A stretch of DNA of 64,000 nucleotides, taken from assembly GCA_023247255.1 (NCBI GenBank), contig JAHFGV010000005.1:6067-70066 (forward strand), given 5' to 3'. The position numbers and the translations under genes were made by a program. Positions 21,135-49,826 of the stretch are shown piece after piece (positions within the stretch are counted from its first letter, which is position 1; each line of letters begins with the position of its first letter). The notes under the pieces were generated by a model. It ran no database searches. It was not told where the DNA came from and saw only the letters and a program-made list of their open reading frames with translations. The DNA is from Candidatus Omnitrophota bacterium (GTDB taxonomy: Bacteria; Omnitrophota; Gorgyraeia; Aquiviventales; Aquiviventaceae).

Positions 21135-22136
21135 TTGCACAATTGCCCAATTTGTAGCATCCTATCCTTAACGCAGAGGAGGAACAAAGGCATGCTACGA
21201 TTTGCCAAACTCGTGCACCACCCGAGGAAACTCTACAGAATGACGGGACTTACGCTTGACCAGTTCCAGACGCTGACGAATCGGCTCACCCCGCTGTGGG
21301 AGCAAGCGGAACGGATGTGCCTCTCGCAGCGCAAGCGAAAGCCACGCCATCGGGAAAGAGTACCAAGTACAAGCTCTCCACGATGGCGGACAAACTCCTG
21401 TGCGTGCTCAGCTTCTACCGCTTCTACCTCTACCTTTGAGCTGCTCGGCTATCTCGTCGGCCTGGATGCCAGCAATATCTGTCGGCTAAAGCCTCGGCTC
21501 GAACCGCTCATTGAGCAGGCAGCCGATCCAAGCCTGGGGCTGTCGCTCCGCCGTCGGCTCCCGCCCGGCGTCAAGAGAATCGGCACCTGGGAGGAACTCG
21601 TGGAGCGCTGTCCGGACTTCGCAGACGTGGTCACTGATGCGACCAAGCAGGCACGACTCCGTCCACCGCGACGCACCCAGCGGCGCTGGTACTCCGGCAA
21701 ACGTAAGCGCCACACACTCAAGACGCAGTTGAGCATCACTCGGCAGAGTGGCCGGATCCTCCATATCAGTTCAACCGTCCCGGGCCGTGTCCATGACTAC
21801 GCGCTCTTGAAGCGGACGCGACTGGACGAACGGCTGCCGCCGAAGACGCGCCTCACCCTGGATCGGGGGTATGATGGTGCCATGACGGACTATCCGACTC
21901 CCGCTATCGCGCTGCCCGTCAAGCGTCGAGGCAACCACCAGGTCCTGACGCGCTCGGAGCGGGCATTCAACCGCCTCCAGGCGCGGCAGCGGATCATCGT
22001 GGAGCATGTCCCAAGTTGCGTGAAGAAGTACCAGCTCCTCGCGCAGGTCTACCGCCACCGGATCGCGGACTACAACCACCGCTTTCGCAACATTGCGGCC
22101 TTGACGAACTTCCGCCTAACGCCGACGGTGACGTAA
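21135..22136 (+). mobile_element. IS5-family (HTH_Tnp_4 + DDE_Tnp_4 type) transposase gene, apparently frameshifted
   Basis: The N-terminal HTH and the C-terminal DDE region (LDRGYDG...) are in one frame. The expected GRPRKLSxEDQLL..L.YLR segment (GKSTKYKLSTMADKLLCVLSFYRFY) lies in the -1 frame between about 21340 and 21438. Candidate imperfect terminal inverted repeats: gcacaattgccc (21150) and gggcaactgcgc (22170). Confidence 0.6.
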
Positions 22137-23123: not shown

Positions 23124-23366
23124 ATGGCAAAAGTGGTCACGGTACGGCTTTCGGAGGAGGACTATCGAAAGATTGCAGCCGTCGCAAAACGTGAGCGGCG
23201 CCCGCTTTCGAACTTTATGACGCTGATGGTGATCAAGGGCATCGAGGAGGGCGATTACGTCGATGCCGTGGAGATGGATCAGATCCTCGCGGACAAGTCT
23301 CTGAGGGCTAAGTTACGGGCAGGGCACTACGACGCCAAGCGACGCAAAGGCAAGCTCGTTGGCTGA
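23124..23366 (+). CDS. CopG/RHH-family antitoxin
   Basis: 80 aa. MAKVVTVRLSEEDYRKIAAVAKRERRPLSNFMTLMVIKGIEEG is a ribbon-helix-helix fold signature. Overlaps the downstream toxin gene by 8 nt. Confidence 0.65.
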   Translation: MAKVVTVRLSEEDYRKIAAVAKRERRPLSNFMTLMVIKGIEEGDYVDAVEMDQILADKSLRAKLRAGHYDAKRRKGKLVG

Positions 23367-23637
23367 TTTTCGTATCTTCGAGACCTCACAGTTTCAGAAG
23401 GACCTTCAGCAGGACTTCCGAGGGCAACAGGCGCGCATTGAACGCAAGCTCGCCACGTATGTCTATCCCCAGCTGCGAGCGAATTCCTACATCGGGAAGA
23501 ATATCAAGAAACTTCGGGATGCCGTTCCTGAGACCTGGCGGTATCGCATCGGGGATTACCGATTTTTCTACAGGGTCGATGAGCGGCAACGACTCATCTT
23601 TATGCTGACTGCCGACCATCGTGGTCACGCGTATTGA
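23359..23637 (+). CDS. RelE/ParE-family toxin
   Basis: 92 aa. IGKNIKKLRDAVPETWRYRIGDYRFFYRVDERQRLIFMLTADHRGHAY is a canonical RelE/ParE C-terminus. Confidence 0.65.
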   Translation: MADFRIFETSQFQKDLQQDFRGQQARIERKLATYVYPQLRANSYIGKNIKKLRDAVPETWRYRIGDYRFFYRVDERQRLIFMLTADHRGHAY

Positions 23638-23768: not shown

Positions 23769-23842
23769 GGGGGCGTAGCTCAATTGGTTAGAGTGGCGGC
23801 CTGTCGAGCCGTAGGTTGCGGGTTCGAGCCCCGTCGCCCCCG
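23769..23842 (+). tRNA. tRNA-Asp (anticodon GTC)
   Basis: Acceptor GGGGGCG/CGCCCCC, D arm GCTC-AATTGGTTA-GAGT, anticodon stem GCGGC/GCCGT with loop CTGTCGA, T arm GCGGG-TTCGAGC-CCCGT. Confidence 0.85.
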
Positions 23843-24068: not shown

Positions 24069-24224
24069 CAGCCGACCGGAGTTTGAGCACAGAAAACTGA
24101 TTGCGCAATAGGTCTATTGAAGCCCGCGAGAGGGCTGCTCCATTGCGAGTCCTTCTCGTTCTCCTTGACGGTTGTGGCGCGTAGGCGTATTCTTCATGAG
24201 ATGGGTGACGAACCAAGAGCCTTC

Positions 24225-24875
24225 ATGGGCCAATTCCTCTCTCGTATGGAGCCTTTCAGACGACTCAGCCAGGCTGAACGGCTACGGCTTGCTGCTGTCG
24301 CCCGTGAGAAACGCTATGACAAAGGCGACACCATCTTCCGCGCAGGTCAGCCAGCCGATGCCGTCTGCGTCGTCAGAGAAGGCCGCGTCCACTTGATGAA
24401 ATTTCTCGAAGGCGGGCAGGCGTCCACGACGTGCGTCATGACGCCCGGGGAAACGTTCTGTTGTCTGCCGGCGCTTGACGGAAAACCGTACCCCGTGGAT
24501 GCCGTCGCTGCAGTGGACTCCACGGTCATTTGCATTCCTACCAGCGCCTTCCATGAGCTCCTGCGCAAGAACCCCGCGTTCCTCCAAGACTCACTCTGCC
24601 TCTTCTGCGATCGGCTGCGCCAGGTCGAGGACAAGAGTTGCATGACCTACGACTCCGTCGAGCGGCGGCTGGCCAAATCACTCCTCATGCTCTCAAAGAA
24701 GTTCGGCCCGACGATTCCGCTGACCAAACAGGAGCTGGCCGAGCTGGCCAATACCACCCAGGAGACCACGATCCGAATTTTAAGCCAACTGAGCAAGCAA
24801 GGGGTGATTCGTTCCGCCCGCGGGAAAACCACGATCCTGCGCCCAGAGAAGCTCTCCGCCTTCCTCGACCCGTAA
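24225..24875 (+). CDS. Crp/Fnr-family transcriptional regulator
   Basis: cNMP-binding domain (RYDKGDTIFRAGQPADAVCVVREGRVHLMK) plus a C-terminal HTH (LTKQELAELANTTQETTIRILSQLSKQGVI). Start could be as far upstream as 24117. Confidence 0.75.
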   Translation: MGQFLSRMEPFRRLSQAERLRLAAVAREKRYDKGDTIFRAGQPADAVCVVREGRVHLMKFLEGGQASTTCVMTPGETFCCLPALDGKPYPVDAVAAVDSTVICIPTSAFHELLRKNPAFLQDSLCLFCDRLRQVEDKSCMTYDSVERRLAKSLLMLSKKFGPTIPLTKQELAELANTTQETTIRILSQLSKQGVIRSARGKTTILRPEKLSAFLDP

Positions 24876-25044
24876 GCCCTTCCTGACGGACGTCATAGAA
24901 ATCCTCTAGACCGCAAGGTATCGTTGCGGGTAGCCACGTCACAGAGGAGGTGACTCCGTCGGTTTTGCAAGACTACACTCATTGGACGACGAGGAGTTGC
25001 GGAAGCCTCCAAGGGAGATCCCACGCAACTCCATCATAATGACA

Positions 25045-25056
25045 TGACGTACGTCA
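25045..25056. promoter_or_regulatory. perfect palindrome TGACGTACGTCA (candidate operator), 50 nt upstream of the hemerythrin-like gene
   Basis: TGACG-N2-CGTCA followed by TAGAAGG. Related copies at 24884-24895, 39822-39833 and 43308-43327. Confidence 0.35.
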
Positions 25057-25107
25057 TAGAAGGATTCCCTGTTGAGCGCTACAGTTAGATATGAAAGGAG
25101 GCGCAGG

Positions 25108-25761
25108 ATGAACGCGGTCGAGCGTCTGCGGCGGGATCACACGATCCTCAGAGCCAAGCTGAGCGTCTTGGAAGGGGCGCTGACCATGGGGTCGGAGACA
25201 TGGTTCGTGCTCCGGGAAATTTGCCACGCGCTCTCTCGCCAGCTCCAGGATCACATCAAACGTGAAGAGGAGCTGGTCACGGCGTGCAAAGAAGCACTGC
25301 CCGACGACGTGCTGGCCCATCTCACCGTCGGGCATAAGGACGAGCCTGCGTTGCTGCGGACGATCAACCGGCTGTTTATCGAGGAGCAGGGGCATTCTCT
25401 TGCGAGCATCAGGCCGTCGTTGACGAGGCTCATTCTCGGCCTGCGTGGTCACATGGACGAAGAGGAGGCCGAGTTGTTCCCGGCGATTGAAGGGGTCCTG
25501 AGCGACCATGAAGCAGCGGAGGTTCAAGAGCCGCTTCCGCCTGTCAGGCTGCGCGAGGAGATGACGGTCAACCATGTACTCCATACTTACCCGCAAACCA
25601 AACCACTCCTTGAACGGCTCTTCATCAACGTTCCGTATGAGGGCTACGACTGCCTAGATGAAGTCGCCTGGAGACGGGGAATGGACTGCTGCCAATTCAT
25701 CGGGCTGCTTGAGGAGGCGATCAGCGTGGCGTACCACTGTGATGAGATCGTAGCAGCATGA
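25108..25761 (+). CDS. hemerythrin-like domain protein with C-terminal DUF1858-like domain
   Basis: N-terminal LRRDHTILRAKLSVLE ... His/Glu-rich helices. C-terminal MTVNHVLHTYPQTKPLLERLF. Encoded next to a Crp/Fnr regulator. Confidence 0.5.
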   Translation: MNAVERLRRDHTILRAKLSVLEGALTMGSETWFVLREICHALSRQLQDHIKREEELVTACKEALPDDVLAHLTVGHKDEPALLRTINRLFIEEQGHSLASIRPSLTRLILGLRGHMDEEEAELFPAIEGVLSDHEAAEVQEPLPPVRLREEMTVNHVLHTYPQTKPLLERLFINVPYEGYDCLDEVAWRRGMDCCQFIGLLEEAISVAYHCDEIVAA

Positions 25762-25848
25762 GCTCGCTTTTGACTTGACGAACCACGAGCTTGTTAATAA
25801 GATGAAACACGCGATGGGTCGACAGGGTGTTGTGAGGAGCCGTCCAGC

Positions 25849-26925
25849 GTGAACCTCCTCGTTGTGGGACTCAGTCATCGCACCGCGCCGCTCGAATTGC
25901 GCGAGCTGCTGGCGATCCCGTCACGCGAGTTGCCCGACACACTCGGCGATCTTCATACCCAGTTCGGGATCGATGAAGCGGTGATCCTGTCGACCTGCAA
26001 TCGGGTTGAGATCTACGTCATCACACCAGACCCCTCCGCAACCTCCTACGGCCTCATCGACTTCTTGAGTCATCGAAGCCACGTGGCCCCCGAGGCGTTC
26101 CAATCCCGGATGTATTGCCTAACGGGACCTGACGCGGTGAGACAGCTCTTTGGCGTCACTGCAGGGCTGGATTCGATGGTCCTTGGGGAGTCAGAAATCA
26201 CGGCCCAAGTGAAACAAGCCTATCGGGTGGCACAAACCGAAGAGACAACCGGGCTTGTGCTCCATCGCCTCTTCCAGAAAGCCTTGCACACGGCAAAGGT
26301 CATTCGATCCAAGACACGCTTAGGCTTTGGCCAAGCCTCCATCGGATCAATCGTTGTCGCGCTTGCCAGGAAACTCTTCGAAGGGCAACTTCAAAATTGC
26401 GAAGTCTTGCTTTGGGGAGCCGGAAAGGCGGCGGAATCGACTGCACGGTATCTCATCAAGAACGGGGTGGGCCAGTTGTGGATTGTCAACCGCACACCGC
26501 TCAAAGCGCGGGATCTTGCGACGCTTTGCCAAAGCGGCTGGCTCTCGTGGGAGCAGGCGTTGAAGCACCTCGCCCACGTCGATATTGCCATCGTCTGCAC
26601 CCAAGCGCCGCACTACGTCATCGATCAAGGCGACCTCGATGCGGTTGCGGCTCAGCGCGGCAGCCGCCCCCTGTGTCTCGTTGACCTGGCGGTGCCTCGC
26701 AACGTCGAGCCGTCCCTCGCGCGGCATCCCGGTGTGCGCCTCTACAACATCGATGATCTCCAAACCATTACGCAGGCTGCACAATCGCAGCGTGAACAGG
26801 AACGCGAACGCTCTGACGCGCTCATTCAGGAGCAGGTCAACCATTTCTCTCGTTGGTGGATGGCAGTTTCCCACAAGAAGGAGGATGTTCCATGCCGATC
26901 CGTCGAGGCCTTCTCGTCGGTGTGA
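25849..26925 (+). CDS. hemA: glutamyl-tRNA reductase
   Basis: MNLLVVGLSHRTAPLELRE ... ILSTCNRVEIY ... NAD(P)-binding GAGKAAESTARYL. 358 aa, somewhat short. Confidence 0.85.
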   Translation: MNLLVVGLSHRTAPLELRELLAIPSRELPDTLGDLHTQFGIDEAVILSTCNRVEIYVITPDPSATSYGLIDFLSHRSHVAPEAFQSRMYCLTGPDAVRQLFGVTAGLDSMVLGESEITAQVKQAYRVAQTEETTGLVLHRLFQKALHTAKVIRSKTRLGFGQASIGSIVVALARKLFEGQLQNCEVLLWGAGKAAESTARYLIKNGVGQLWIVNRTPLKARDLATLCQSGWLSWEQALKHLAHVDIAIVCTQAPHYVIDQGDLDAVAAQRGSRPLCLVDLAVPRNVEPSLARHPGVRLYNIDDLQTITQAAQSQREQERERSDALIQEQVNHFSRWWMAVSHKKEDVPCRSVEAFSSV

Positions 26926-28118
26926 GTCTCGTCGCGGCGCTTACGCTCGGAGAATCAGCGTGGGCAACGATCGAGAACCTCAAAAGCTACAAGGCAGCCT
27001 ATCCCGATAAAGATCCCAAGGCCTATTCGTGCAAGGCCTGCCACGAGGGCCTCATCGGGAAGAAAGACAACCTCAACGCCTATGGTCTCACCTTGCAGAA
27101 GTTCAAAGTGGATGCCGGGGCGAAGAAATTGACCGAAGAAGATTTTCGGGCGTTCGAGGCTGCGGATGCTGATGGGGATGGCGCCTCCAATCTTGATGAG
27201 CTGGACGCGGGCACTGATCTGAATGATCCCACGTCCGTGCCGGAGGGCGCTGGGCAAACGCCAGAAAAAAAAGAAGAAAGCCCAGGCACTGAGCAGCAGA
27301 CAAGCCCTCCAGGCGGCGCGTCGCAACTGAATCCAGGGACACTGAAACAGTTGCAGGCCTACCTGGAGGAGCAGATCGTCCCAGACGTTCAAGCGGCGCC
27401 AGAGGAATCGTCAGTGTCTAGGCGGCATGACGACAAAACAGCGTCCAACGCCAAATCCTCCCAACCCGAACAGGCTGAGTACGTGGGGATGGAGACCTGC
27501 GCGATGTGTCATAACAAGCAGCACCAGGAATTTCTCCACTCAACCCATGCCAGGATCGCAATCCCCGGAGAGACCAAGGCGCAAGGTTGTGAGACCTGTC
27601 ATGGGCCCGGCAGTCTGCACGTTGCTGCCGGTGGCGGTCGTGGCGTCGGTGGGATTATCAATCCGAAGAAGGATCCCGGCGCCTGTTTTGCCTGTCACCT
27701 CGACAAGAAAGCGGAATTTCGTTTGCCCCATCACCATCCCGTGATGGAAGGCAAGATGAGTTGTGCGGATTGCCACAATCCCCACGGTGAGGATGTGCGG
27801 CCGTGGTCAGCGACGACGCTGAAGGATATCAATGAGGCCTGCTTTCGGTGCCACAAGGAACAGCGCGGCCCATTCGCCTGGGAACACGAGGCGCTGCGGG
27901 AAGGTTGCACGACCTGTCACAAGGTTCATGGCTCGATTCACGAGAAGATGCTGCTCGTCCGGGACAACAACTTGTGCCTGCGCTGCCATACGCAGACGAA
28001 CTTCCCGACCATTGGCAGGTCCAGCCATGCTGGCCGGCTTCCCCAAGGGACGTGCTTTAGCGCGGGATGCCATACGGCGGTTCACGGATCGAACTTCGAC
28101 GATCACCTCCGCTACTAA
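26892..28118 (+). CDS. periplasmic multiheme (8-9 heme) cytochrome c with acidic Ca-binding-like N-terminal linker
   Basis: Signal peptide MPIRRGLLVGVSLVAALTLGESAWA. Eight CxxCH motifs plus one CxxxCH (CFSAGCH). A DADGDGASNLDELDAGTDLNDP TSP3-like acidic repeat lies after heme 1. Confidence 0.75.
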   Translation: MPIRRGLLVGVSLVAALTLGESAWATIENLKSYKAAYPDKDPKAYSCKACHEGLIGKKDNLNAYGLTLQKFKVDAGAKKLTEEDFRAFEAADADGDGASNLDELDAGTDLNDPTSVPEGAGQTPEKKEESPGTEQQTSPPGGASQLNPGTLKQLQAYLEEQIVPDVQAAPEESSVSRRHDDKTASNAKSSQPEQAEYVGMETCAMCHNKQHQEFLHSTHARIAIPGETKAQGCETCHGPGSLHVAAGGGRGVGGIINPKKDPGACFACHLDKKAEFRLPHHHPVMEGKMSCADCHNPHGEDVRPWSATTLKDINEACFRCHKEQRGPFAWEHEALREGCTTCHKVHGSIHEKMLLVRDNNLCLRCHTQTNFPTIGRSSHAGRLPQGTCFSAGCHTAVHGSNFDDHLRY

Positions 28119-28130
28119 AGGAGACGCCTC

Positions 28131-30191
28131 ATGCGCGCGATGCTTTGTTGGACGTTGGGAGGAATTCTGGGTGTGAGTCTATGGTTACCCTCACGCCTTG
28201 CTGAGGCTGCGGACCCGGAGGTTTCCCTTTCCCTGGAGCCCATCCGTTATGCGTTCGTCAATGGCGACCGGGATAAGTTTAGCGCCCATCATTGGATGAA
28301 AGACAACTACGTCGGAGGCGTGAAGGAGTTTTCCTTCGACTACGCCCTTGCGGATGGAACGCAGCTCTCCGCAGAAAGCCACGCGCTCATTGATCAAAAC
28401 GATTTGGGCGCTGACGTCTCACTTAAGAAAGACTCACTGGGCTTTTTCAATCTCGGCTACTCCGAATTCCGCAAGTATTACGATAAAACCGGTGGTGTGT
28501 ACTATCCGTTTACCACCCTTCGCAGCAACGATACGTTTAAGGACCTTGCTCTGGACATCGGTCACCTCAGCCTTGAAAGCGGGTTGACCCTGGAAGGCTG
28601 GCCTGACCTGACCTTCGAGTACGAGCGCGAATTCAAGGATGGGGCGAAATCGCGCCTGAGCTGGGTCCCAACGAAGGAAGGGACCACCACCCGGAATATC
28701 GGTCCCTCGTGGCAAGATCTTGATGAGGTCGTCGACTCATTTGGCCTCAAAGCCGATCATGAGATCGCAGGATTCACTCTCAAGGGCGAGCAGCGATGGG
28801 AGTTCGTGCGGACCGAAACCTTTCGGGAGGAGAAATTTCTCGCGACAACAGGTGTCGCAGCAGACACCAAGATTCGACGGCAGGACCAAGCCCCGCAAGC
28901 CACCTTGATGACGACGACGTTAGGCGGGGAGCGTTCGTTCTTCGCTGACAAGATATTTACATCGATGGGCTACCATTTCGCCCACATGGATAATCGGGAA
29001 TTCGAGACAATCGTCGAGTCGAACGCGGCTGGAACCGTAACAAACTTTTCGAATCCGAAGCAGATCCGTAATGCGCGCGCCGATAACGACTACGATACCC
29101 ATACCTGGGTAGGGAACTTCATGATCAACCCCTGGAACTGGCTGAGCCTCGGGACCAAACTCAAGGCTGAAGCGATTCACCGGGAGAGCGACTCAAGCTA
29201 TCCGGCGGATGCCTCGCCGAACTCCACGGGCGGCAGCACCCCGAATGGGGCGATCGACTCTCTCGTGGCCAGTCTCAACAAGAACAAGGCCGTTCGCTGG
29301 GGGGAAGGAGTGTCCCTGCGGTTTTTTGGCATCCCACGCACCGCTCTCTACACTGATTTGGAGTTGGAGCAATCGCGAGTAATCTTGGCAGAGGATCGGA
29401 AAGATTTAGTGACGATCCCGAATGTCAACGAGGATTTCAGCCGCTACACTGTCACCAACGTCCGACGAGGGACGTGGACATTGGGCGGCCATGTCGCGCC
29501 GGGGTCGTTCCTCGATCTGACGACGCAGGTCCGGCGACGTGTCAACAACAACGACTACGATGACCAACGGGAAACCGTCGCCTCAGGGACGGCGCTGTCC
29601 GCATTCGTCGATATGCAGAACATCCATACGGATGAGTTCACCACGCGGGCCACGCTGCGGCCCTCTCGGTGGTTTCGCCCCTCGTTCCGGTACCAGTTCC
29701 GTAACGATAAATATGCGACTCGGACGGAAGCGCAGGATACCGTAAAGACGGGTATGCTCTCGAACATCTACACTTTTGACGTAACGGCACAACCGTTGCG
29801 AGACCTCACGACCACCGCCTCCTTCTCGCGTCAGACGGCCGTCACCACCACTCCCGCGGGTTCGGCGTCGTCAGCAAACGTTCCTGGGTTTCGCGCAAAT
29901 GTCAACACGTGGCTTTTCAGCACCGACTACAGCCCAAGGGCGAATGTGAGTATCACCAACGCGCTGCTCTATTCGCGCGCAAGAAACTTCAACGATTTTA
30001 CCGCCAGCGGGATGCCGTTCGGGACCTCGTTTGATCGGCTGGATGTGACCACAGGTCTGAAGTGGGCGCTGACCGAGGATACGTCTGTTGGCACCGAATA
30101 CGCATTCTACTCGTATCTGCCCAATTCGCTGACCGAAGTGGGCGACTACCATGCCCACGTCATCTGGCTCGAGTTGTCGAAGCAGTTTTGA
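28131..30191 (+). CDS. putative outer-membrane beta-barrel (porin partner of the preceding cytochrome, MtrB/PioB/MtoB-like)
   Basis: 686 aa with a signal peptide, alternating amphipathic beta-strand patterns and an aromatic C-terminus ...HVIWLELSKQF. Gene order cytochrome then barrel matches mtrAB/pioAB/mtoAB. No sequence comparison was possible. Confidence 0.45.
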   Translation: MRAMLCWTLGGILGVSLWLPSRLAEAADPEVSLSLEPIRYAFVNGDRDKFSAHHWMKDNYVGGVKEFSFDYALADGTQLSAESHALIDQNDLGADVSLKKDSLGFFNLGYSEFRKYYDKTGGVYYPFTTLRSNDTFKDLALDIGHLSLESGLTLEGWPDLTFEYEREFKDGAKSRLSWVPTKEGTTTRNIGPSWQDLDEVVDSFGLKADHEIAGFTLKGEQRWEFVRTETFREEKFLATTGVAADTKIRRQDQAPQATLMTTTLGGERSFFADKIFTSMGYHFAHMDNREFETIVESNAAGTVTNFSNPKQIRNARADNDYDTHTWVGNFMINPWNWLSLGTKLKAEAIHRESDSSYPADASPNSTGGSTPNGAIDSLVASLNKNKAVRWGEGVSLRFFGIPRTALYTDLELEQSRVILAEDRKDLVTIPNVNEDFSRYTVTNVRRGTWTLGGHVAPGSFLDLTTQVRRRVNNNDYDDQRETVASGTALSAFVDMQNIHTDEFTTRATLRPSRWFRPSFRYQFRNDKYATRTEAQDTVKTGMLSNIYTFDVTAQPLRDLTTTASFSRQTAVTTTPAGSASSANVPGFRANVNTWLFSTDYSPRANVSITNALLYSRARNFNDFTASGMPFGTSFDRLDVTTGLKWALTEDTSVGTEYAFYSYLPNSLTEVGDYHAHVIWLELSKQF

Positions 30192-30634
30192 TGTGTCCTC
30201 GTCAGCCCCTCAGTCGCCGGGTTTTCCTGGCGCTTTGCCTCAGGGGTGGTGGGCTTGCCCTGCTTGGGGCTGCGCTCTATCCCATCCTGCGGTATCTCTA
30301 TCCTCCCCGAGGCGTTGAATCCTCCGTCTCCAGCGTTGCGGCGGCGAAGGTGGGGGATCTGGCGACGAATACCGCGAAGATCTTCCGGTTCGGCAGTCGG
30401 CCCGGCCTCCTCATTCGTTCCCCCCAAGGCGAGCTCAAAGCCTTCTCGGCGGTGTGCACCCACCTCAACTGCACCGTTCAGTACGACAGCGACGCGAGCA
30501 TCATCTGGTGCGCCTGCCACAACGGCAAGTATGACTTAAACGGACAGGTCATCTCCGGCCCTCCCCCACGACCACTCGATGCCTACCAGGTGAACGTCCG
30601 CGGAGAAGACATCATCGTCTCCAAGACGTCCTAG
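30191..30634 (+). CDS. Rieske [2Fe-2S] protein
   Basis: TAT-like SRRVFLALCL. Rieske boxes CTHLNC and CACHNGKYD. About 147 aa. ATG overlaps the upstream stop. Confidence 0.8.
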   Translation: MCPRQPLSRRVFLALCLRGGGLALLGAALYPILRYLYPPRGVESSVSSVAAAKVGDLATNTAKIFRFGSRPGLLIRSPQGELKAFSAVCTHLNCTVQYDSDASIIWCACHNGKYDLNGQVISGPPPRPLDAYQVNVRGEDIIVSKTS

Positions 30635-30638
30635 CCTG

Positions 30639-31709
30639 ATGGGGTACTTCGAGCACCTACGCGCATTCTTGCATGAGCGCTACCGGCTGGGTGGCCTAGT
30701 GGATCTCGCCACGCATAAGACGGTCCCCATCCACCGCCACAGCGTCTGGTACTACTGGGGCGGCATGACGCTCGTGCTCATCGGCATCCAGATCATCAGC
30801 GGTGTGCTGCTGTTGCTGTACTACCGCCCATCAGCCCAGGAAGCCTTCGAGTCGGTTCGCTTCCTCATGACGCGGGTGCAATTCGGGTGGCTGGTGCGCT
30901 CCGTGCACGCGTGGGCGGCGAACCTGGCGATCTTCTGCGCGATGGTGCATCTGGCCAGCGTCTTTTTCCTGAAGGCGTATCGGCCACCCCGTGAACTGAC
31001 CTGGGTGACCGGGGTTGTGTTGTTGTTTCTGCTATTTGGTTTCGGATTTACCGGCTACCTCCTGCCGTGGAATACGCTGGCGTTTTTCGCCACCAAGGTC
31101 GGCACGGAAATCGCGGGGATTGTGCCCGTCGTCGGGCCTGTCGTTCAAATCTTTCTGCGCGGTGGAAGCGACGTTGGGGATGTGACGATCACGCGGTTCT
31201 TTTGGCTTCATGTCGCAATCCTGCCAATCGGCCTGATGACACTCTTAAGCCTTCATCTGCTCATGATCCAGCTCCAGGGCATGAGCAAACCGCCTTGGGT
31301 TAAGAGCAATCGGTCCATGCCGTTCTTTCCGAATTTTTTCCTGCGCGATCTGGTTGCCTGGTCACTCATACTGGGGATAGTGCTGTGTGTGAGCGTGCAC
31401 TGGCCCGCGACGCTCGGCGAAAAGGCCGATCCGTTCGCTCCGACACCCGTGGGCATCCAACCGGAATGGTATTTTCTCTGGATGTTTCAGACGCTCAAGA
31501 TTTTCCCTGGCCACCTGTTTGGTCTCGAGGGTGAGTTAGTCGCGGTGGGATTGACCGGACTGGCGGGTCTTGCGCTGCTACTCGTTCCATGGCTGGATCG
31601 CCCCGCCCGACGGGAGCAATCATCCTGGCTGGTATGGGCTGTTGGCGTGTTGGGCATTGCCTATGTCGTCGGGATGACCGGCTACGCGCTATGGGTGAAA
31701 CCTCACTGA
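30639..31709 (+). CDS. cytochrome b (fused b6 / subunit IV type)
   Basis: 356 aa. His ligands lie in TM helices (VHAWAANLAIFCAMVHL, WLHVAILPIGLMTLLSLHLLMIQ). PEWYFL motif present. Confidence 0.85.
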   Translation: MGYFEHLRAFLHERYRLGGLVDLATHKTVPIHRHSVWYYWGGMTLVLIGIQIISGVLLLLYYRPSAQEAFESVRFLMTRVQFGWLVRSVHAWAANLAIFCAMVHLASVFFLKAYRPPRELTWVTGVVLLFLLFGFGFTGYLLPWNTLAFFATKVGTEIAGIVPVVGPVVQIFLRGGSDVGDVTITRFFWLHVAILPIGLMTLLSLHLLMIQLQGMSKPPWVKSNRSMPFFPNFFLRDLVAWSLILGIVLCVSVHWPATLGEKADPFAPTPVGIQPEWYFLWMFQTLKIFPGHLFGLEGELVAVGLTGLAGLALLLVPWLDRPARREQSSWLVWAVGVLGIAYVVGMTGYALWVKPH

Positions 31710-32995
31710 TGACAGGGTATCGTCTACGGGTGGCACTCGGACTTCTGCTGTGCCCTGGCTTTGTGTGGTCGGCTGAGAAGCCGAATAGTTGTGTCGAGTG
31801 CCACAAGCAGGTGGAGGGCCAAACGCGAGGGCCGGCCACACTGGCTGCAGAGGACGTGCATTTCCAGCGAGGCTTGTCCTGCGTGGATTGCCATGGCGGC
31901 GATCCAACAGCGATGGATCCTCAAGCCGCGATGGACCCGGCTAAAGGGTTCCTCGGTCGCCCGAGGCGGGAGCAGATTCCCCAGTTTTGCGCCCGGTGCC
32001 ACGCGGATCCGGCCACCATGCGCAAGTACAATCCCAATCTTCCGACTGACCAATACGCGAAGTACCTGACCAGTCAGCACGGGAAGCGCTTCAGTGTTGG
32101 CGATGCCGATGTGCCGGTCTGCATCAGTTGCCACGAGGCGCACGGCATCCGCTCGAAAAAAGACCCAGCCTCGCCGGTCTACCCGACGAACATCCCCGGA
32201 ACCTGCGCGAGCTGCCACAGCGACGCGTCGATCATGGACAAACACGGCTTGCCGGTGAACCAGCACTGGGACTACTCGCAGAGCGTCCACGGCCAGGCGC
32301 TGTTGTTCCGTGGCGATCGTGCGGCTCCCCATTGCGCGAGCTGCCACGGATCGCACGAAGCGGCCAAACCTAGGACGGTCGCAATCGGCAACGTCTGCGC
32401 TCAGTGCCATAGCCTCACGCGCGATCTGTTTGCAAAGAGTCCCCACAAGGCCGCGCATGAAGCCTTAGGGCTTCCGGAGTGCGAGGTCTGCCACGGCAAT
32501 CACCTGATCCGCAAGCCAAGCGACGAGATGCTTGGGACGGGACAAGATGCGGTGTGTGTCAGTTGTCACGAGCCAGGGTCGACCGGCTACGTCACCGCGC
32601 AGCAGATGCGCAGCGCCATCGAGCAACTGAAAACCCACATGGCCAGCGCTGAGGCAGCCGTCAGGCACGCAGCGGAGTTGGGCATGGATGTCGGTGACGC
32701 GGAATTTGAGCTTCGCGAGGCGATGACCCAACTCACGCAAGAGCGCACCTACGTCCACTCTTTCTCCGCCGCAACCATGGAACCCATTGCCGAGGAGGGA
32801 ACTCACCACGCCCTGCGGGCCGAGGGGCAAGCCCGCCAGGCGATCCGTGAGTTTCATTTCCGCCGTCAGGGCTTGTGGGTCACCCTGATCATTCTCGCCC
32901 TCGTGGTTTCTGGACTCCTTCTGAAGATTCGAGACTTGGAGCGATCGGACTCGACAGACAAGATGGACGACACATCCCCTCGCGACTCCTCGTAA
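31709..32995 (+). CDS. multiheme (about 9 heme) cytochrome c with C-terminal membrane anchor
   Basis: Signal peptide, then nine CxxCH motifs and a C-terminal TM helix WVTLIILALVVSGLLLKI. Start overlaps the cytochrome b stop. Confidence 0.75.
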   Translation: MTGYRLRVALGLLLCPGFVWSAEKPNSCVECHKQVEGQTRGPATLAAEDVHFQRGLSCVDCHGGDPTAMDPQAAMDPAKGFLGRPRREQIPQFCARCHADPATMRKYNPNLPTDQYAKYLTSQHGKRFSVGDADVPVCISCHEAHGIRSKKDPASPVYPTNIPGTCASCHSDASIMDKHGLPVNQHWDYSQSVHGQALLFRGDRAAPHCASCHGSHEAAKPRTVAIGNVCAQCHSLTRDLFAKSPHKAAHEALGLPECEVCHGNHLIRKPSDEMLGTGQDAVCVSCHEPGSTGYVTAQQMRSAIEQLKTHMASAEAAVRHAAELGMDVGDAEFELREAMTQLTQERTYVHSFSAATMEPIAEEGTHHALRAEGQARQAIREFHFRRQGLWVTLIILALVVSGLLLKIRDLERSDSTDKMDDTSPRDSS

Positions 32996-33032
32996 AATCT
33001 GCCATTTCCGGCTATGATATCTGCGGAGCATC

Positions 33033-34550
33033 ATGAACCACACATCGATGCCAAAACCCCCCAGCCTCTTGCGCAACCCGCTGAGCTTTTTCGGCCTCGC
33101 CGTCGCCATCACGAGCACGGCGTTTGGCCTGCCCATGATGTTCGTCGACATGTTCAGTCGACGCACGCATCCGTATCTTGCTGTGCTCGTTTATCTCGTG
33201 CTGCCGTTCGTTGCAGCAGGCGGCGTCGGCTTAGTCCTGCTTGGAGCATTGTGGGAACGCCGTCGAAGACGCCGACGGCCTGGCATGGTAGTGCCACCCC
33301 TGCCATCCATCGATCTCAATCGAAGCGCCCACCAGATTGCTGTGGCTGGAGCACTCACAACGTTCATGACTATTGTGGCCATGCTCTCCGTGACCGGCTA
33401 CCGGGCGTACCACTTTACGGAGTCGGTCAAATTCTGCGGCCTGGTCTGTCACCAGGTGATGAAACCGGAGTATACGGCGTATCAGTATTCTCCGCATGCG
33501 CGCGTGGCCTGCACCCAGTGCCATGTCGGGCCTGGTGCAAGCTGGTTCGTGCGCTCAAAGATCACAGGAGCGTATCAGGTTTACGCGGTTACATTCAACA
33601 AGTACCCGCGCCCGATTCCCACACCCGTGAAGAGCCTGCGTCCGGCGCAAGAAACTTGCGAGCAATGCCACTGGCCGGCGAAGTTTTTTGGCGCGCAGCA
33701 GAAAACCTTCACGCACTACATGGCGGATGAGCACAACAGCCCGTGGCAGATTCAGATGCTGCTGAAAATCGGCGGCGGCGATCCGTCGGTTGGCGCTCCT
33801 GCGGGCATTCACTGGCACATGAACATCAAGAACGATATTTATTACATTGCCTCAGATGAGCAGCGGGAAACCATTCCGTGGGTGCGCGTGGTCGAGCCGC
33901 AGGGACGCATCGCCGAATATATGTCGATGGAAAGTCCGCTCTCGCCGGAGCAGATCGTAAAGAGCGAAGTGCGCCGCATGGACTGCGTGGATTGCCACAA
34001 CCGGCCCTCCCACATCTTTCGACCGCCGGATCGTGCGGTGGAGGAGGCCTTCGAGACCGGCCGGCTAGAGCGGTCCCTGCCGTATCTGAAGCGCGAAGCC
34101 ATAAGGTTGTTGGCGCAAGAGTACCCCTCGGAGGAGCAGGCGTTATCAGCCATCCTGAAAGGCTTGGCCGAGTTCTACCAGAAGGACTATCCAGAGGTGT
34201 ATCGCGAACAGGCAGTCGCTATTCAACAGGCCACAGCTGAGTTGCAACGCATCTATTCGAGGAATTTCTTTCCCGAGATGCGCGCCGATTGGCGCGCCCA
34301 TCCCAACCACATGGGCCATCTAAATGCCGAAGGCTGCTTCCGCTGCCACGATGGGCTGCACAAAAACCGCGAGGGCAAGGTGCTAACCAAAGACTGTACC
34401 GCCTGTCACACGATCTTGGCCCAGGGGCCACCTGAGGAGGTGGCGCAAGCCAAGCTTGAAGCGCAGCCGTTTCGCCACCCGGTCGACGTGGGGATGGACG
34501 TGACGGAATTTAAGTGCAGCCAGTGTCATACCGGCACGAGCGGTCTCTAG
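33033..34550 (+). CDS. inner-membrane heptaheme cytochrome c (NapC/NirT-superfamily, ImcH-like)
   Basis: Three N-terminal TM helices followed by seven CxxCH motifs. 505 aa. Confidence 0.6.
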   Translation: MNHTSMPKPPSLLRNPLSFFGLAVAITSTAFGLPMMFVDMFSRRTHPYLAVLVYLVLPFVAAGGVGLVLLGALWERRRRRRRPGMVVPPLPSIDLNRSAHQIAVAGALTTFMTIVAMLSVTGYRAYHFTESVKFCGLVCHQVMKPEYTAYQYSPHARVACTQCHVGPGASWFVRSKITGAYQVYAVTFNKYPRPIPTPVKSLRPAQETCEQCHWPAKFFGAQQKTFTHYMADEHNSPWQIQMLLKIGGGDPSVGAPAGIHWHMNIKNDIYYIASDEQRETIPWVRVVEPQGRIAEYMSMESPLSPEQIVKSEVRRMDCVDCHNRPSHIFRPPDRAVEEAFETGRLERSLPYLKREAIRLLAQEYPSEEQALSAILKGLAEFYQKDYPEVYREQAVAIQQATAELQRIYSRNFFPEMRADWRAHPNHMGHLNAEGCFRCHDGLHKNREGKVLTKDCTACHTILAQGPPEEVAQAKLEAQPFRHPVDVGMDVTEFKCSQCHTGTSGL

Positions 34551-34627
34551 GCCTGCCCGCCTGTCGTCCAAAAGTGTGATCTGGGTCATAGTTCGTCTCC
34601 CTGCGTTCTGAGAAGATTACTTAGGCG

Positions 34628-36183
34628 ATGGGGGAGGCTCTGACGAGAAACGGCGGACGGATACGGCGCGTAGCGCTCTGCGCGCTCTTCACGTGCTGGA
34701 CCTGGGCGCCGCGGGCCATGGGAGAGGGCAGCGTCTCTCCAGCCGCGCAAGAGATCGACAACGCTGCCTGTCTGGCTTGCCATGGTGATCCCTCGGCAAT
34801 CCGCTTTGTGGACCACGCGAAGTTCGAGGCTTCCGTCCATGGGAGTTTTTCCTGCACTACCTGCCACGCGGATGTCGTCACCATTCCCCATGACGTGCCG
34901 CTGGAGTCGATCAGTCAGTCGCAGATCCCCCTCACGTGCGGCCAGTGCCATGAAGACATCAAGGCTGCCTACCAGCGGAGTATCCACGCTCAGGCGGTCG
35001 CCGCCGGCAAGCGCCATGCGCCCGTCTGCACCGACTGCCATGGTGAGCACTATGTGGCCCCGGTGAAAACGGAGGCGTCGAAAGTGTTTCCCTCGCACAT
35101 CCCGCAGACGTGCGCACAGTGCCACGCGGCGGAGCGCATCGTTACGAAGTATCGGTTGCCGGCGTACGTGGTCGATACGTACATGAGCAGCTTCCACGGC
35201 CTCATACACCAACTGGGATCCGTGACGGCCGCGAACTGCGCCTCCTGCCACGGGGCGCATGACATTCTCCCCGCGAACGACGAGCGTTCCTCGGTCAATC
35301 CGAAGAACCTGCCGAAAACCTGTGGCTCCTGCCATCCGGGCGTCGGCGCGTTCGTCGCACAGGGAAAGATTCACTCCGGCACACAGCCCGGAGCGGAACA
35401 TCCTGCGGTGACATTCGTTCGCCGGTTCTACCTCATCCTCATCGGTTTGGTCATTGGGGGCATGCTGATTCACAACGGTCTCGATTTCCGCAAAAAACTC
35501 TCGATCCATTACCAACGGATGGCCGCCAGCAGCGCGGTACAACGGATGAGTCTTAATGAGCGCCTTCAACATGGCGTGCTCTTGATCGCCTTTGCGACGC
35601 TCGCCTATACCGGATTTGCGTTAAAGTTCCCGCATGTCTGGTGGGCACGCCCCTTCATGGGCCGCGTCGACTGGCGCCGCCTGGGGCATCGGGGAGCGGC
35701 GGTCGTCTTCTGCCTGCTCGCCGGCTACCACCTCTGGTTCATGACGTGCACGAAACGGGGGCGGAGCGAGTTGCGCGCCTTGCGACCCGAACGAGCCGAC
35801 TTCACGCACCTGAGACGGATGCTCGGCTTCTATCTGGGTAGGAGCCGGGAGCAGCCGCGCGCGGCGCGGTACAGCTACGTGGAGAAAGCGGAGTATTGGG
35901 CGCGGTCTGGGGTTCAGTCATCATGGTGCTCACCGGCGGTCTGATGACCTGGCAGAATTGGACATTGCGCTTCCTGCCCAAGTGGGCGTTCGATGTTTTT
36001 ATCACGGTGCATTTTTATGAAGCACTCCTCGCATGCTTGGCGATCCTTATTTGGCACCTCTACTTCGTCATGTACGATCCCGATGAATACCCGATGAAGT
36101 GGACGTGGATCAGCGGCAAGGCCTCACCCACCGACGAGGCACATCGGCATCCAGGCGACGCCGAGGAAGGCAATCCAGGCTGA
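34628..36183 (+). CDS. CbcL-like fusion of a heptaheme cytochrome c with a FdnI/HydC-type di-heme cytochrome b (interrupted by a frameshift near 35897)
   Basis: Seven CxxCH motifs, then TM helices with conserved His (RFYLILIGLVIGGMLIHNG, HGVLLIAF, HRGAAVVFCLLAGYHLW). The reading frame shifts -1 at the tattgggcgcgg G-run and continues as VWGSVIMVLTGGLMTW ... HFYEALLACLAILIWHLYF. Confidence 0.6.
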
Positions 36184-36269
36184 ATCCTCTAAGACTTAAC
36201 GCCGTGTTGGCGCAAAAACATACCTCGGAGGCGCAAACGTCCTCTGTATGATAAAATAGAAACCTTGCC

Positions 36270-38051
36270 ATGACACCCTTCGTCCGATTCCTTGGATCGC
36301 TGAGCATCGCGGTGCCGCTGCTGATCGTGATTGCCCTGGTGCTCGCATGGGGCACCATCTATGAAACCCGCTTTGGCACGGCGGCGGTTCAGCGCTTTGT
36401 CTACCACGCGTGGTGGTTTCAAGCGCTCCTCGGCTTTCTGGCGATCAACCTCGCCGTGGCTGCGCTCGAGCGCTATCCGTGGCAGCGTCGACACCTGCCG
36501 TTTGTCCTGGCCCACATCGGCATCATCCTCATCCTGATTGGGGGGATTATCGGAGCCCGATTCGGCATCGAGGGTCAGATGATCATTCCGGAAGCTCAGG
36601 CCGAGCGCGTCCTCGAGCAGCCAGGCAATGTCCTTGTAGTGCGCCAGCCAAACCCGGGTCTATCTATCATCATCCCCACGCAGTTTGAAACGCAGGCCTG
36701 GGTGCATGAGCCGAACGCGACCTTTCCCGTGACTCTCGATGGCCGGACGATTGCGCTCACCGTCGACCGCTACTATCCCGACGCGGTGACGGATGAAGAA
36801 ATCACAAGCGGTGGCGCTGAGGACAATCCGGCTCTCCACATGCTGCTTACGCACAACGAGCAGCAGGATGCGGTGTGGCTCATGAGCAGGGACTCTGAGC
36901 GTTTTGGTATGGGCTGGGGTGAGGCGCACGTGCTCTTCCTTGAACCAAGAACTGCTTCTGAAGTCGATCGGCTTACTGGGGCTGGGCGCTCACCTGGCGT
37001 CGCGTCTGCGCGAGGCGTGATCGTTATCCGCCTACCCGGGATGCATGCGCCACGCGAGATTCCGGTTCCCGATGAGCGCAACCGATCCGTCGACGTCACA
37101 GGCACGCCCTATCAGATCATCTTCAAGGATTACTTTCCCGATTTTGCGATTACCGAACAGGGGATCGTGAGCCGCTCGCTTGAGGCCAATAACCCTGCGG
37201 TTTCTTTCATCATCACCGGACCCGAGGGAACCGATGCGTATTTGCTGTTTGCGCTCCATCCCGATTTTCAAACGATCCATGGCTTCGAACATAAGATCGA
37301 CGCCCAGGTGAGTTATACCCACACCGCCAGCGCTGCGCTGCCTCCCAATTGTATCGGGCTCATCCGTGCACCATCAGGAACCTTAATCGGTATCTTGACC
37401 GGCAGCGGGACCGATCGATCCGTGATCAATCCGCTGGAACTTGGCAAACGGTACACCCACCCTTCGCTCGGCTATCAGTTTGAAGTCGCCACGTACTATC
37501 CCCGTGCGGTTCTCACGCAGCACGTCACCAACCGAGGAGATGAAATCAAAGCCGAAACGCTTCATCTCGTGGGACGTGAAGGTGATCAGAGCGCAGAGGC
37601 GTGGTTGGGTTTGCGCGGCTCGGCAGAATTCGCGTTGGGAAAGGAGCCGGTTACGATTGAGTACCGACCGGCCCGATGGGAGCTGCCGTTTACCATCAAG
37701 CTCTTGGACTTTCGCAAGATCGACTATCCAGGAACGCAGATGGCCTCGGCGTTTGAAAGCGACGTGGAGCTCACCGATTCTCAGCGGGGTGTCATCCTGA
37801 TGCGCAAGATTACGATGAACAACCCCCTGCGCTACCGCGGGTTTAGCGTGTACCAATCCAGCTACATCGAAGGCCCGACGGAAACCACAGTGCTCTCGGT
37901 GCGCAATGATCCAGGAACCCCATTTGTTTATGCGGGGTTCATCATTGTGATCGCCGGCGTCGTCAGTATGTTTGTGCTCGGCACCCCCTCCACGACCGCA
38001 ACCCCTCCGCCTTCGATCCGGCGAGTACGCAGAAGGAGCCGCTCTTCATGA
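36270..38051 (+). CDS. ccsB: cytochrome c biogenesis protein ResB/CcsB
   Basis: 593 aa with N-terminal TM helices, a large soluble domain and a C-terminal TM. ResB-like. Confidence 0.8.
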   Translation: MTPFVRFLGSLSIAVPLLIVIALVLAWGTIYETRFGTAAVQRFVYHAWWFQALLGFLAINLAVAALERYPWQRRHLPFVLAHIGIILILIGGIIGARFGIEGQMIIPEAQAERVLEQPGNVLVVRQPNPGLSIIIPTQFETQAWVHEPNATFPVTLDGRTIALTVDRYYPDAVTDEEITSGGAEDNPALHMLLTHNEQQDAVWLMSRDSERFGMGWGEAHVLFLEPRTASEVDRLTGAGRSPGVASARGVIVIRLPGMHAPREIPVPDERNRSVDVTGTPYQIIFKDYFPDFAITEQGIVSRSLEANNPAVSFIITGPEGTDAYLLFALHPDFQTIHGFEHKIDAQVSYTHTASAALPPNCIGLIRAPSGTLIGILTGSGTDRSVINPLELGKRYTHPSLGYQFEVATYYPRAVLTQHVTNRGDEIKAETLHLVGREGDQSAEAWLGLRGSAEFALGKEPVTIEYRPARWELPFTIKLLDFRKIDYPGTQMASAFESDVELTDSQRGVILMRKITMNNPLRYRGFSVYQSSYIEGPTETTVLSVRNDPGTPFVYAGFIIVIAGVVSMFVLGTPSTTATPPPSIRRVRRRSRSS

Positions 38052-39709: not shown

Positions 39710-40157
39710 CGTTCTCGCCTTCTTCCCTAAGGGATCATGCGCCCAAGGAATTCTCATCTCCTCTTTATCCTTGACCTCCTCTACGGCACATCTTAGTTGT
39801 CCAGCCGACAAAAGGTCTCCATGACGTTCGTCATGGAAGACTCTTATCCGGAGCCGCTATCCTCTTTTTCATGACACATCCGTGAATCACGGCTACAAAT
39901 GGCCGACTTGCTGACGATAAGGTCGTTTCTCACAAAGTTCACACCCTGTGAACATTGTGAGAGGTACGTTACCGTCGACGAAGCGTGAAATTCCCGCCAG
40001 GTTTGCAACGGAGCTGTCCGGGAAGCGAGGCCGCTCCGACGAGACAGCGGTTGCCTTCGAACTCAATGTTCCCGGTTCCGTACGGTTTTGCAACACTTCT
40101 CGCTCCGCCATCGACGAGGAGCAGCGTAACTCAGACGCGATTCAGGACATAACACAG

Positions 40158-40214
40158 GACTCATGAAACAGACGTGAGCACTGCCACTAACCTCGATGCA
40201 TTTTGTAAAACCCC
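40158..40214. repeat. 57-bp element shared with the nuoJ upstream region (2645-2699)
   Basis: gactcatgaaacagacgtgagcactgccactaacc(t/g)cgatgcattttg(t/a)aaaaccc. Two mismatches over 55 bp. Confidence 0.5.
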
Positions 40215-40291
40215 AGTTACGACTGACGCCTTCCAAGTCTTCTTGCACCTGCTGTAGTGAATCCATCTGCTGCAGCGAATCTCGCGAAAGG

Positions 40292-45365: not shown

Positions 45366-45367
45366 CC

Positions 45368-49521: not shown

Positions 49522-49541
49522 CGAGATGAGGCGTGTGAGCG

Positions 49542-49818: not shown

Positions 49819-49826
<8 letters not shown>
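49542..49826 (+). CDS. small hypothetical protein translationally coupled to nxrB
   Basis: 94 aa. Stop overlaps the nxrB start by 8 nt. No recognisable family. Confidence 0.35.

Follow-up and report, generated by a model that had tools for sequence, protein, structure and literature searches.

A candidate Crp/Fnr-family operator at six promoters of respiratory and cofactor-supply genes in a Candidatus Omnitrophota contig

A 64,000-nucleotide (nt) stretch of DNA assigned to a Candidatus Omnitrophota bacterium (contig JAHFGV010000005.1; hereafter the window) carries a short palindromic motif, most often TGAC-N4-GTCA, at six positions between genes. We consider it likely that this motif is an operator for a Crp/Fnr-family regulator and that it forms class II activator sites at six promoters, with Crp1, a regulator encoded in the window, as the candidate binder. 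An earlier note, made from the letters of this DNA, had proposed a dispersed operator joining a hemerythrin gene, iron uptake and a cluster of NXR-type (nitrite oxidoreductase) genes in one regulon. The proposal holds up well: the motif is over-represented and intergenic, it stands at a fixed distance from a −10-like hexamer, and orthologous sites are kept in related genomes. The six sites, one weaker internal candidate and the promoter elements that accompany them are as follows.

24884–24895, + strand: site 1, TGACGGACGTCA followed by TAGAAA; 28.2 bits; 8 nt after the TAA stop codon of crp1 (24873–24875)
24919–24924, + strand: −10-like hexamer TATCGT of site 1, 23 nt after the core; predicted start near 24931
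25045–25056, + strand: site 2, TGACGTACGTCA, a perfect palindrome; 28.3 bits; 51 nt before the hemerythrin ATG
25057–25062, + strand: TAGAAG at the −35 position of site 2, 17 nt before the −10; matches TTGACA at 3 of 6 positions
25080–25085, + strand: −10-like hexamer TACAGT of site 2; predicted start near 25092, then a Shine-Dalgarno sequence, AAAGGAGG
34577–34588, + strand: tentative weak internal site, TGATCTGGGTCAtag; 16.5 bits; poor −10 (GAAGAT); 51 nt before a multihaem/cytochrome b gene at 34628
39822–39833, + strand: site 3, TGACGTTCGTCA followed by TGGAAG; 30.5 bits; before feoB
39858–39863, + strand: −10 TATCCT of site 3; predicted start near 39870, giving a 326-nt leader to feoB
43310–43321, + strand: site 4, TGACTCCCGTCA followed by TGGAAG; predicted promoter of the helix-turn-helix (HTH)-tatA-NXR cluster
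43346–43351, + strand: −10 TAGGCT of site 4; predicted start near 43358
53170–53181, + strand: site 5, TGACGCGCGTCA, without a TRGAA tail; 20.2 bits; −10 TAGGGT at 53205–53210; predicted start near 53217
63285–63296, + strand: site 6, TGATCTCCATCA followed by TGGAAG, an exact FNR core; 23.3 bits; −10 TATTAT at 63320–63325; predicted start near 63332; upstream of pdxH

The four sequences quoted in the earlier note, which correspond to sites 1 to 4, are present at or within 1–2 nt of the positions it gave. Specifically, the quoted cCATGACGTTCGTCATGGAAG at site 3 has its TGAC at 39822, and the quoted CATGACTCCCGTCATGGAAG at site 4 starts at 43308 with TGAC at 43310. Some details needed correction. 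Site 1 adjoins the Crp/Fnr stop codon and site 2 is a perfect palindrome as described, with distances 1 nt away from the 9 and 50 nt reported, and the spacer, given as N2-4, is always N4. The gene behind site 2, which had been called hemerythrin/DUF1858, does encode a hemerythrin; its supposed DUF1858 C-terminus appears only as a sub-threshold match (E 0.06; 13.9 bits versus a cut-off of 32.2).

In the window, which has 58% G+C, the TGAC-N4-GTCA pattern TGACNNNNGTCA matches six times, compared with 1.05 ± 0.99 expected, and none of 100 dinucleotide shuffles reached six. A longer form that includes TRGAA, TGACNNNNGTCATRGAA, matches exactly at the four originally named sites. When the −10 element is added, the composite TGAC-N4-GTCA-N23/24-TANNNT has five matches against 0.02 expected, and the same composite with Y/R half-sites has six against 0.06. 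These statistics exclude a chance origin of the sites. A weight matrix, as the earlier note had advised, was then built from sites in the window and its relatives and scanned over 584 kb, consisting of the window and related contigs (labelled L with a number below) fetched around crp genes or the first NXR gene. There were 81 matches of 15 bits or more, compared with 0–6 in shuffles, and 44 of these have TAnnnT at the right spacing, compared with 0 in shuffles. The matrix recovered TGATCTCCATCAtggaag at 63285 (followed by TATTAT) as well as the weak 34577 site. With the pattern match at 53170 and the matrix match at 63285, the predicted regulon extends to the Moco riboswitch and moa genes and to pdxH.

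All six sites lie between genes, within the 10.5% of the window that is non-coding, and point toward the downstream gene; one overlaps a stop codon by 3 nt. None of the other intergenic gaps in the window, including those upstream of crp1, dtxR and resB, scores above 9 bits with the matrix, and the best score upstream of crp1 is −2.4. Furthermore, pairwise blastn of the six sites with 150 nt of flank on either side found no similarity among them beyond the core of about 20 nt. Because they are intergenic, share only this short core and stand out from the low-scoring gaps elsewhere, the sites mark a subset of promoters rather than a repeat element or a general promoter feature. The earlier note had held that its proposal would fall if the motif were not enriched in promoter regions or were part of a repeat; in the window, the opposite was found on both counts.

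Some matches were left out of the count. The sixth plain TGAC-N4-GTCA match, at 15066, has neither TAnnnT at 23–24 nt nor a TRGAA tail; it forms the −35 of an ordinary TTGACA-N17-TATCCT promoter before a MazE-like gene. This antitoxin gene and its partner open reading frame (ORF; 15065–15680) are inserted between the ATP synthase gamma (14137–15060) and beta (15824–17239) genes. A 17-bit match inside crp1 (24427–24438, minus strand) encodes a conserved TTCVMT protein motif and most likely arose by chance, and a match at 2578–2594 was set aside for its broken core.

The conserved architecture extends beyond the palindrome and reads aTGAY-N4-RTCAt, followed by T(A/G)GAAg, N17/18 and TAnnnT. In 28 of 47 oriented sites from the window and its relatives, the distance between the first T of the core and the start of the −10-like hexamer is 35 nt, and in another 15 it is 36 nt. 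The tail is nearly as regular, with T in 46, A or G in 47, G in 40 and A in 41 of the sites. It occupies the position of the −35 hexamer, 17–18 nt before the −10, and matches TTGACA at only three positions; a generic sigma-70 scan of the window did not call the site promoters. The flank on the upstream side mirrors the tail only in part (A 66%, Y 74%, C 40%, T 51%), which suggests a weak extension of the palindrome together with an extra constraint on the promoter-proximal side. The trailing GGAAG of the earlier note is therefore real and can be refined to T(A/G)GAAG, which seems to be mainly a degenerate −35 with a partly mirrored palindrome extension.

The half-sites occur in four combinations (TGAC/GTCA 23, TGAT/GTCA 10, TGAT/ATCA 9 and TGAC/ATCA 5 of the 47 sites). 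They vary independently, with unlike half-sites in 15 of the 47, and the exact FNR core TGAT-N4-ATCA is present in nine.

If transcription starts 6–7 nt after the −10, the centre of the dyad would lie about 41.5 bp upstream of the predicted start. The positions of start codons agree with this placement. In relatives, the ATG of the target gene can be as close as 47–52 nt from the start of the site, leaving no room for a Shine-Dalgarno sequence (crp2 in L004 at +47, in L008 at +48 and in L009 at +50; phosphoenolpyruvate (PEP) carboxykinase in L010 and a desaturase in L016, both at +47; a radical-SAM gene in L004 at +49), so transcription would start 41.5–44.5 bp from the dyad centre. The HTH gene of the window starts at +53. 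Judged from these predicted −10 hexamers and start codons, the layout has the geometry of a class II CRP/FNR-activated promoter.

Start codons 47–53 nt from the start of a site, which is 5–12 nt after the −10, with no Shine-Dalgarno sequence, were found at sites in L004 (5039 and 2507), L008 (10010), L009 (6982), L010 (7786) and L016 (2559) and at 43363 in the window. This suggests that leaderless or near-leaderless mRNAs may be common in the lineage.

The sites recur at equivalent positions in related genomes. Species-representative genomes with crp1 relatives are uncultured groundwater metagenome-assembled genomes (MAGs) labelled Planctomycetales or Omnitrophota. One relative comes from a New Zealand aquifer MAG series in which high-GC Brocadiae clades have been described (PMC8862662). 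The source of the window is accordingly taken, provisionally, to be a high-GC, anammox-related member of the Brocadiae. In contigs anchored on crp genes, the usual order is crp1, site, crp2, site, hemerythrin; crp2, another Crp/Fnr paralog, shares about 38% identity with crp1. A site is found upstream of a hemerythrin gene in ten loci (including L002, L003, L007, L008, L009, L010, L016 and L018), and the orthologue of site 1 precedes an intact crp2 in L002, L008 and L018. Likewise, sites precede the HTH/tatA/NXR cluster in 12 loci (including L019–L022, L025, L026, L029, L030, L034, L035 and L039). In the NXR-anchored contigs L019, L020, L021, L025, L026, L029, L034, L035 and L039, the site lies about 450–500 nt 5′ of the first NXR gene and before HTH-tatA, and in L022 and L030, which have no HTH gene, it stands directly before tatA. 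L026 has a site between ccsA and feoB as in the window (4384) and another before resB; L022 also has one before resB, and L003 has one after ccsA (18405). In L029, a crp2-like gene lies directly beside the NXR cluster.

Additional predicted targets in the relatives include mobA, a cysteine desulfurase, a NirJ-like radical-SAM enzyme, pyruvate:ferredoxin oxidoreductase and PEP carboxykinases, all of which fit a theme of anaerobic respiration and cofactor supply. The PEP carboxykinases behind sites are of two unrelated types, ATP-dependent in L009 (1235) and GTP-dependent in L010 (7786), which hints that a function rather than a particular gene was recruited to the regulon. Tentatively, the motif extends to NXR genes of low-GC anammox-like contigs (L031 and L033), where core and spacing are unchanged and the tail differs. 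L031 (46% GC) has two such sites upstream of NXR genes, at 1104 and 2068, where a shared tail, CAGACAGAATTTG, replaces TAGAA. In a more distant crp1 clade (L012 at 4855, L013 at 3125 and L015 at 1951), a TAGAG or TAGAC tail is found on the opposite strand, pointing into crp1.

Alignments with the DNA of relatives also account for the close spacing of sites 1 and 2, between which the window retains the following feature.

24925–25044, + strand: crp2 remnant, with about 600 nt of the gene deleted

These 120 nt keep the crp2 leader, its Shine-Dalgarno sequence, a few degenerate 5′ codons and the 3′ end of the gene, and both flanking sites are intact. A tblastn search found no crp2 elsewhere in the window. 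Since crp2 is deleted and its remnant lies between the two sites, site 1 (24884) can be read as the relic promoter of the lost gene. Around its −10, AAGGTATCGTTG is kept in L002 and L018.

The candidate binder of the motif is encoded immediately upstream of site 1.

24225–24875, + strand: crp1, encoding a 216-aa Crp/Fnr-family regulator (Pfam cNMP_binding and HTH_Crp_2)
24165–24193, + strand: predicted sigma-70-like crp1 promoter, TTGACG-N17-TATTCT, without a Crp/Fnr site (promoter scan)

We aligned Crp1 with E. coli CRP and FNR; the residue numbers from this alignment are provisional. The Crp1 recognition helix, TTQETTIRIL, places Glu and Arg at the positions of CRP E181/R185 and FNR E209/R213, the two residues with which CRP and FNR read their shared TGA. 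An Ile stands where FNR has Ser212, a residue whose role is established from work on FNR and CRP; this substitution fits a half-site that lacks the outer T. At the same helix position, relatives have ET(T/A)IR in Crp1 and ETSIR in Crp2, and both paralogs therefore probably read the same box.

The sensing part of Crp1 departs from both E. coli proteins. In the alignment, Crp1 has no N-terminal extension and no Cys-x2-Cys-x5-Cys of the FNR type. In FNR, these three cysteines (C20, C23 and C29) and the central C122 serve O2 sensing by a [4Fe-4S] cluster. Opposite C122 stands Ile102 of Crp1, and the cysteine next to it, Cys103, is not a conserved residue in the orthologues. When the CRP residues that contact cAMP (G71, E72, R82, S83, T127 and S128) were compared, the contacts were found not to be kept: Cys79/Cys80 replace G71/E72, and non-basic residues replace R82/S83. 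Cys70, Cys79, Cys80 and Cys139 are invariant in 17 Crp1 orthologues, and Cys125 is present in 16 of the 17. The best match of solved structure is a Thermus Crp-family protein (4ev0, E 4e-21), and the DNR structure 3dkw is a weak match (E 1.5e-9). The NCBIfam CRP model gives Crp1 46 bits against a cut-off of 266, and NCBIfam matches to DNR, NnrR and FixK all fall far below their cut-offs.

Nearly all genes of the window are on the + strand. Those associated with the sites were named from Pfam, NCBIfam and Rfam matches, as follows.

25108–25761, + strand: hemerythrin gene, with its ATG at 25108
25108–39709, + strand: predicted operon of hemerythrin, hemA, multihaem cytochromes, Rieske, cytochrome b, more multihaem cytochromes, resB and ccsA (Pfam)
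40196–42250, + strand: feoB
43330–43349, + strand: second palindrome, CCTAGAGC-AGAT-GCTGTAGG, overlapping the −10 of site 4; candidate HTH_31 operator
43363–43581, 43587–43760 and 43767–52801, + strand: HTH_31 protein gene, tatA and the NXR cluster
53228–53385, + strand: Moco riboswitch (Rfam RF01055, 61.6 bits)
Downstream of the riboswitch: Cys-rich ORF (53451–53732), moaA, moaC, moaB, moeA, mobB, a ThiS-like (moaD-type) gene and moaE (Pfam)
After the moa genes: tatC, a mobA-like gene and pdxH (63341–63988; NCBIfam)
Before crp1: ATP synthase genes, then a transposase and toxin-antitoxin pairs (order from Pfam, NCBIfam and Rfam)

Gaps between genes of the 25108–39709 cluster are mostly shorter than 90 nt, and the cluster would form a single operon. 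The linkage of crp and hemerythrin genes to a cytochrome cluster of this type is kept in L008, L010 and L011. The NXR-type cluster encodes a cytochrome c/EB_dh subunit, a 1200-aa molybdopterin subunit, a 4Fe-4S subunit and a NarJ-like chaperone. The HTH gene before it most likely starts at ATG 43363 rather than at ATG 43309 inside the motif, because alignments to homologues begin at the first residue of the 72-aa protein. About 11 nt separate the predicted start of site 5 from the Moco riboswitch.

Several neighbouring features deserve mention. A DDE transposase gene (21135–22136), a ParE/antitoxin pair (23124–23637) and a tRNA gene (23769–23842) lie directly 5′ of crp1, and this junction, rich in mobile elements, may be tied to the local rearrangement that removed crp2. 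At the position equivalent to the leader of site 3, L026 has a Cys-rich ORF of 111 aa. Directly after feoB, positions 42547–43254 encode a DtxR/MntR-type iron-dependent repressor fused to a FeoA domain; because of this neighbour, feoB may be under dual control by iron and the Crp/Fnr site, by analogy with E. coli feoABC under Fur and FNR. Between the Moco riboswitch and the Cys-rich ORF at 53451–53732 there is a terminator-like hairpin (about 53391–53431). That ORF is 40% identical to a 71-aa ORF directly behind the site in L003 (18458–18673), and the two may represent an unnamed family of small proteins inside the predicted regulon.

These features can be assembled into a model. A Crp1 dimer would bind the 14-bp palindrome aTGA(C/T)-N4-(G/A)TCAt, an FNR box that prefers C/G at the inner position; the crp2 product of relatives, which has the same DNA-contact residues, may bind it too. 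Bound at about −41.5, the dimer would bring RNA polymerase to promoters with no serviceable −35. The six promoters would drive the crp2 relic, the hemerythrin-hemA-Rieske/cytochrome b-multihaem-resB/ccsA cluster, feoB, the HTH-tatA-NXR genes, the Moco riboswitch with the moa genes, and pdxH. By sharing promoters of this kind, a respiratory molybdoenzyme would be expressed together with its supply of molybdenum, iron and haem. The signal is probably O2, nitric oxide (NO) or redox state, perceived via a cysteine-lined effector pocket. We infer binding by Crp1, activation rather than repression, and the exact start sites.

A bolder extension of this model is possible, though in our judgement doubtful: Crp1 could represent an undescribed class of Crp/Fnr sensor with a cysteine-lined pocket, heading a two-tier cascade with Crp2, its cysteine-poor paralog, that masters the NXR, the Rieske/cytochrome b complex and the molybdenum, iron and haem supply of the anammox lineage across Brocadiae. 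A pocket of this kind might bind an Fe-S cluster or a metal; alternatively, it might react with NO or O2.

The same sites and the same protein family could in principle serve repression, with the dimer blocking RNA polymerase at the −35 until a signal arrives. The −35 position lies against the site or partly within it, the conserved T(A/G)GAAg may be a −35 that works, if weakly, and repression by FNR has been described for sites ranging from upstream of the −35 to the transcription start (PMC3688515). However, the hexamer matches TTGACA at only 3 of 6 positions, the sigma-70 scan is silent on these promoters, and crp1, which has a good promoter, has no site. The tight spacing, at a predicted −41.5 in 43 of 47 sites, is a signature of class II activation, whereas repressor sites are usually scattered. 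We regard repression as unlikely. A different DNA-binding protein, such as the HTH_31 (XRE-type) protein (43363), the DtxR/FeoA-type protein (42547) or an unlinked factor, seems less probable again. The HTH_31 gene does follow immediately on site 4, and the feoB-dtxR pair lies between sites 3 and 4. Yet L022 and L030 have a site before tatA-NXR without an HTH gene, and most sites in the Crp-anchored loci are near crp1 or crp2 with neither an HTH_31 nor a DtxR gene nearby. DtxR/IdeR boxes are 19-bp AT-rich palindromes, unlike this motif, and a TGA-N6-TCA core with class II spacing is what a Crp/Fnr protein with the helix Glu and Arg would be predicted to use. A better candidate for the HTH_31 operator is the separate palindrome at 43330–43349, whose distribution follows that of the HTH gene: L019, L034 and L035 have a perfect copy, and L022 has neither the palindrome nor the HTH gene. 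This palindrome might mediate HTH_31 autorepression.

The palindromes might instead act as hairpins in RNA or DNA (a terminator, a processing site or a repetitive extragenic palindromic (REP)-like element) or belong to a dispersed repeat. For two sites, 39822 and 43310, a stable 8-bp hairpin is predicted (−12.0 and −11.7 kcal/mol; z about −4.4 to −4.9), site 1 lies just past a stop codon, and the inner positions are weakly associated (C..G 23, T..A 9, T..G 10, C..A 5). Against this, the folding of four of the six sites in the window (−2.9 to −4.0 kcal/mol) does not surpass that of shuffles, the outer three pairs are fixed in sequence without compensatory change, a C..A mismatch is present in five of the 47 sites, the sites are not followed by a T-run, and similarity ends after about 20 nt. 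Most sites would not even be transcribed from their own promoters, because the predicted starts lie downstream of them. A hairpin also leaves the fixed TAnnnT spacing and the gene-ward orientation unaccounted for, and we give this explanation almost no credence.

Besides the overlap with the −35 position, several points weigh against the motif being a Crp/Fnr activator site. The −41.5 placement has predicted −10 hexamers and start codons as its basis. The invariance of TGA and TCA arises partly by construction, since the search patterns and the matrix require this core, and many of the counted sites are orthologous, so the counts are not independent. Crp1 matches no curated NCBIfam equivalog above its cut-off. 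Of the relatives, only the closest, L019, has a counterpart of site 5 (14812); in L020, L022 and L026, the Moco riboswitch is present and no site precedes it. The model does not account for the sites after crp1 in L012, L013 and L015, which are reversed and have no TAnnnT at the usual spacing, or for the 326-nt leader after site 3 (39870–40195), which gave no Rfam match at E ≤ 1, contains no convincing ORF and is not conserved in L026 or L003.

To our knowledge, the anammox-related Planctomycetes are genetically intractable, and almost nothing is known of how they control transcription. The present motif was derived de novo and is backed by phylogenetic footprints. It yields a testable regulon that links NXR, the Rieske/cytochrome b complex, cytochrome c maturation, ferrous iron uptake, Moco synthesis and hemerythrin, and it can be used to scan complete genomes of the lineage and to read metatranscriptomes of aquifers and reactors across oxic-anoxic gradients. 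The analysis also flags a Crp/Fnr subfamily whose sensing chemistry may be based on cysteines, and of which Crp1, a small soluble protein, is suited to electrophoretic mobility shift assays (EMSA) or DNA affinity purification sequencing (DAP-seq). Our literature searches found nothing on TGAC-N4-GTCA, and on anammox and FNR together only one relevant study, in which a Brocadia genome had been scanned with the E. coli CRP matrix (PMC8510549). The motif described here suggests that this matrix is not the right one for the Crp1-type regulators of the lineage. Within the literature that could be searched, we found no description of this particular motif, its regulators or the predicted NXR, Mo/Fe/haem and hemerythrin regulon in anammox-related bacteria.

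The kind of element, in contrast, is well known, being an FNR-type box in class II promoters. The earlier note had suggested comparing the motif with CRP/FNR-family site models, naming NnrR, Dnr and NsrR; the likeness to the FNR, DNR and NnrR type stands, and NsrR is a misfit because it belongs to the Rrf2 family. E. coli CRP, which binds TGTGA-N6-TCACA, shares with the system described here the fold family, the TGA...TCA core and the Glu/Arg contacts. It differs in that its cAMP contacts are not kept in Crp1 and that the half-sites of the window lack GTG.

E. coli FNR is another parallel. The FNR consensus is TTGATnnnnATCAA; the site falls at −41.5 ± 4 in 19 of the 23 promoters that FNR activates, and narGHJI, moaA, feoA and ynjE belong to the regulon (PMC3688515). 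Similar here are the TGA-N6-TCA dyad, the deduced −41.5 position, the poor −35 and the helix Glu and Arg, and the predicted regulon parallels the Nar-type molybdoenzyme, moa genes and feo of FNR. In contrast, the half-site is aTGAC rather than TTGAT, with the outer T replaced by A or C and the inner T mostly by C. Crp1 lacks the Cys-x2-Cys-x5-Cys and has Ile for Ser212, and its candidate sites carry a conserved T(A/G)GAA flank.

Cascades of Crp/Fnr paralogs that read near-identical boxes offer another comparison, as with ANR and DNR in Pseudomonas or FnrP, NNR and NarR in Paracoccus. Crp1 differs from these in having no sequence membership in DNR, NnrR or FixK, and in the window the crp2 gene is deleted. 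Nevertheless, in relatives two paralogs that share their contact residues lie side by side; the promoter of the downstream one, crp2, contains a box, and that of crp1 is of the plain sigma-70 type. The most conserved target is a hemerythrin-type gene, which is suggestive of the dnrN/ytfE-type genes found in NO-responsive regulons. Regulators of the DNR/NnrR type sense NO through haem, and their regulons hold nir and nor genes as well as such di-iron proteins. By analogy with ANR and DNR, the promoter layout of crp1 and crp2 may reflect a two-tier cascade.

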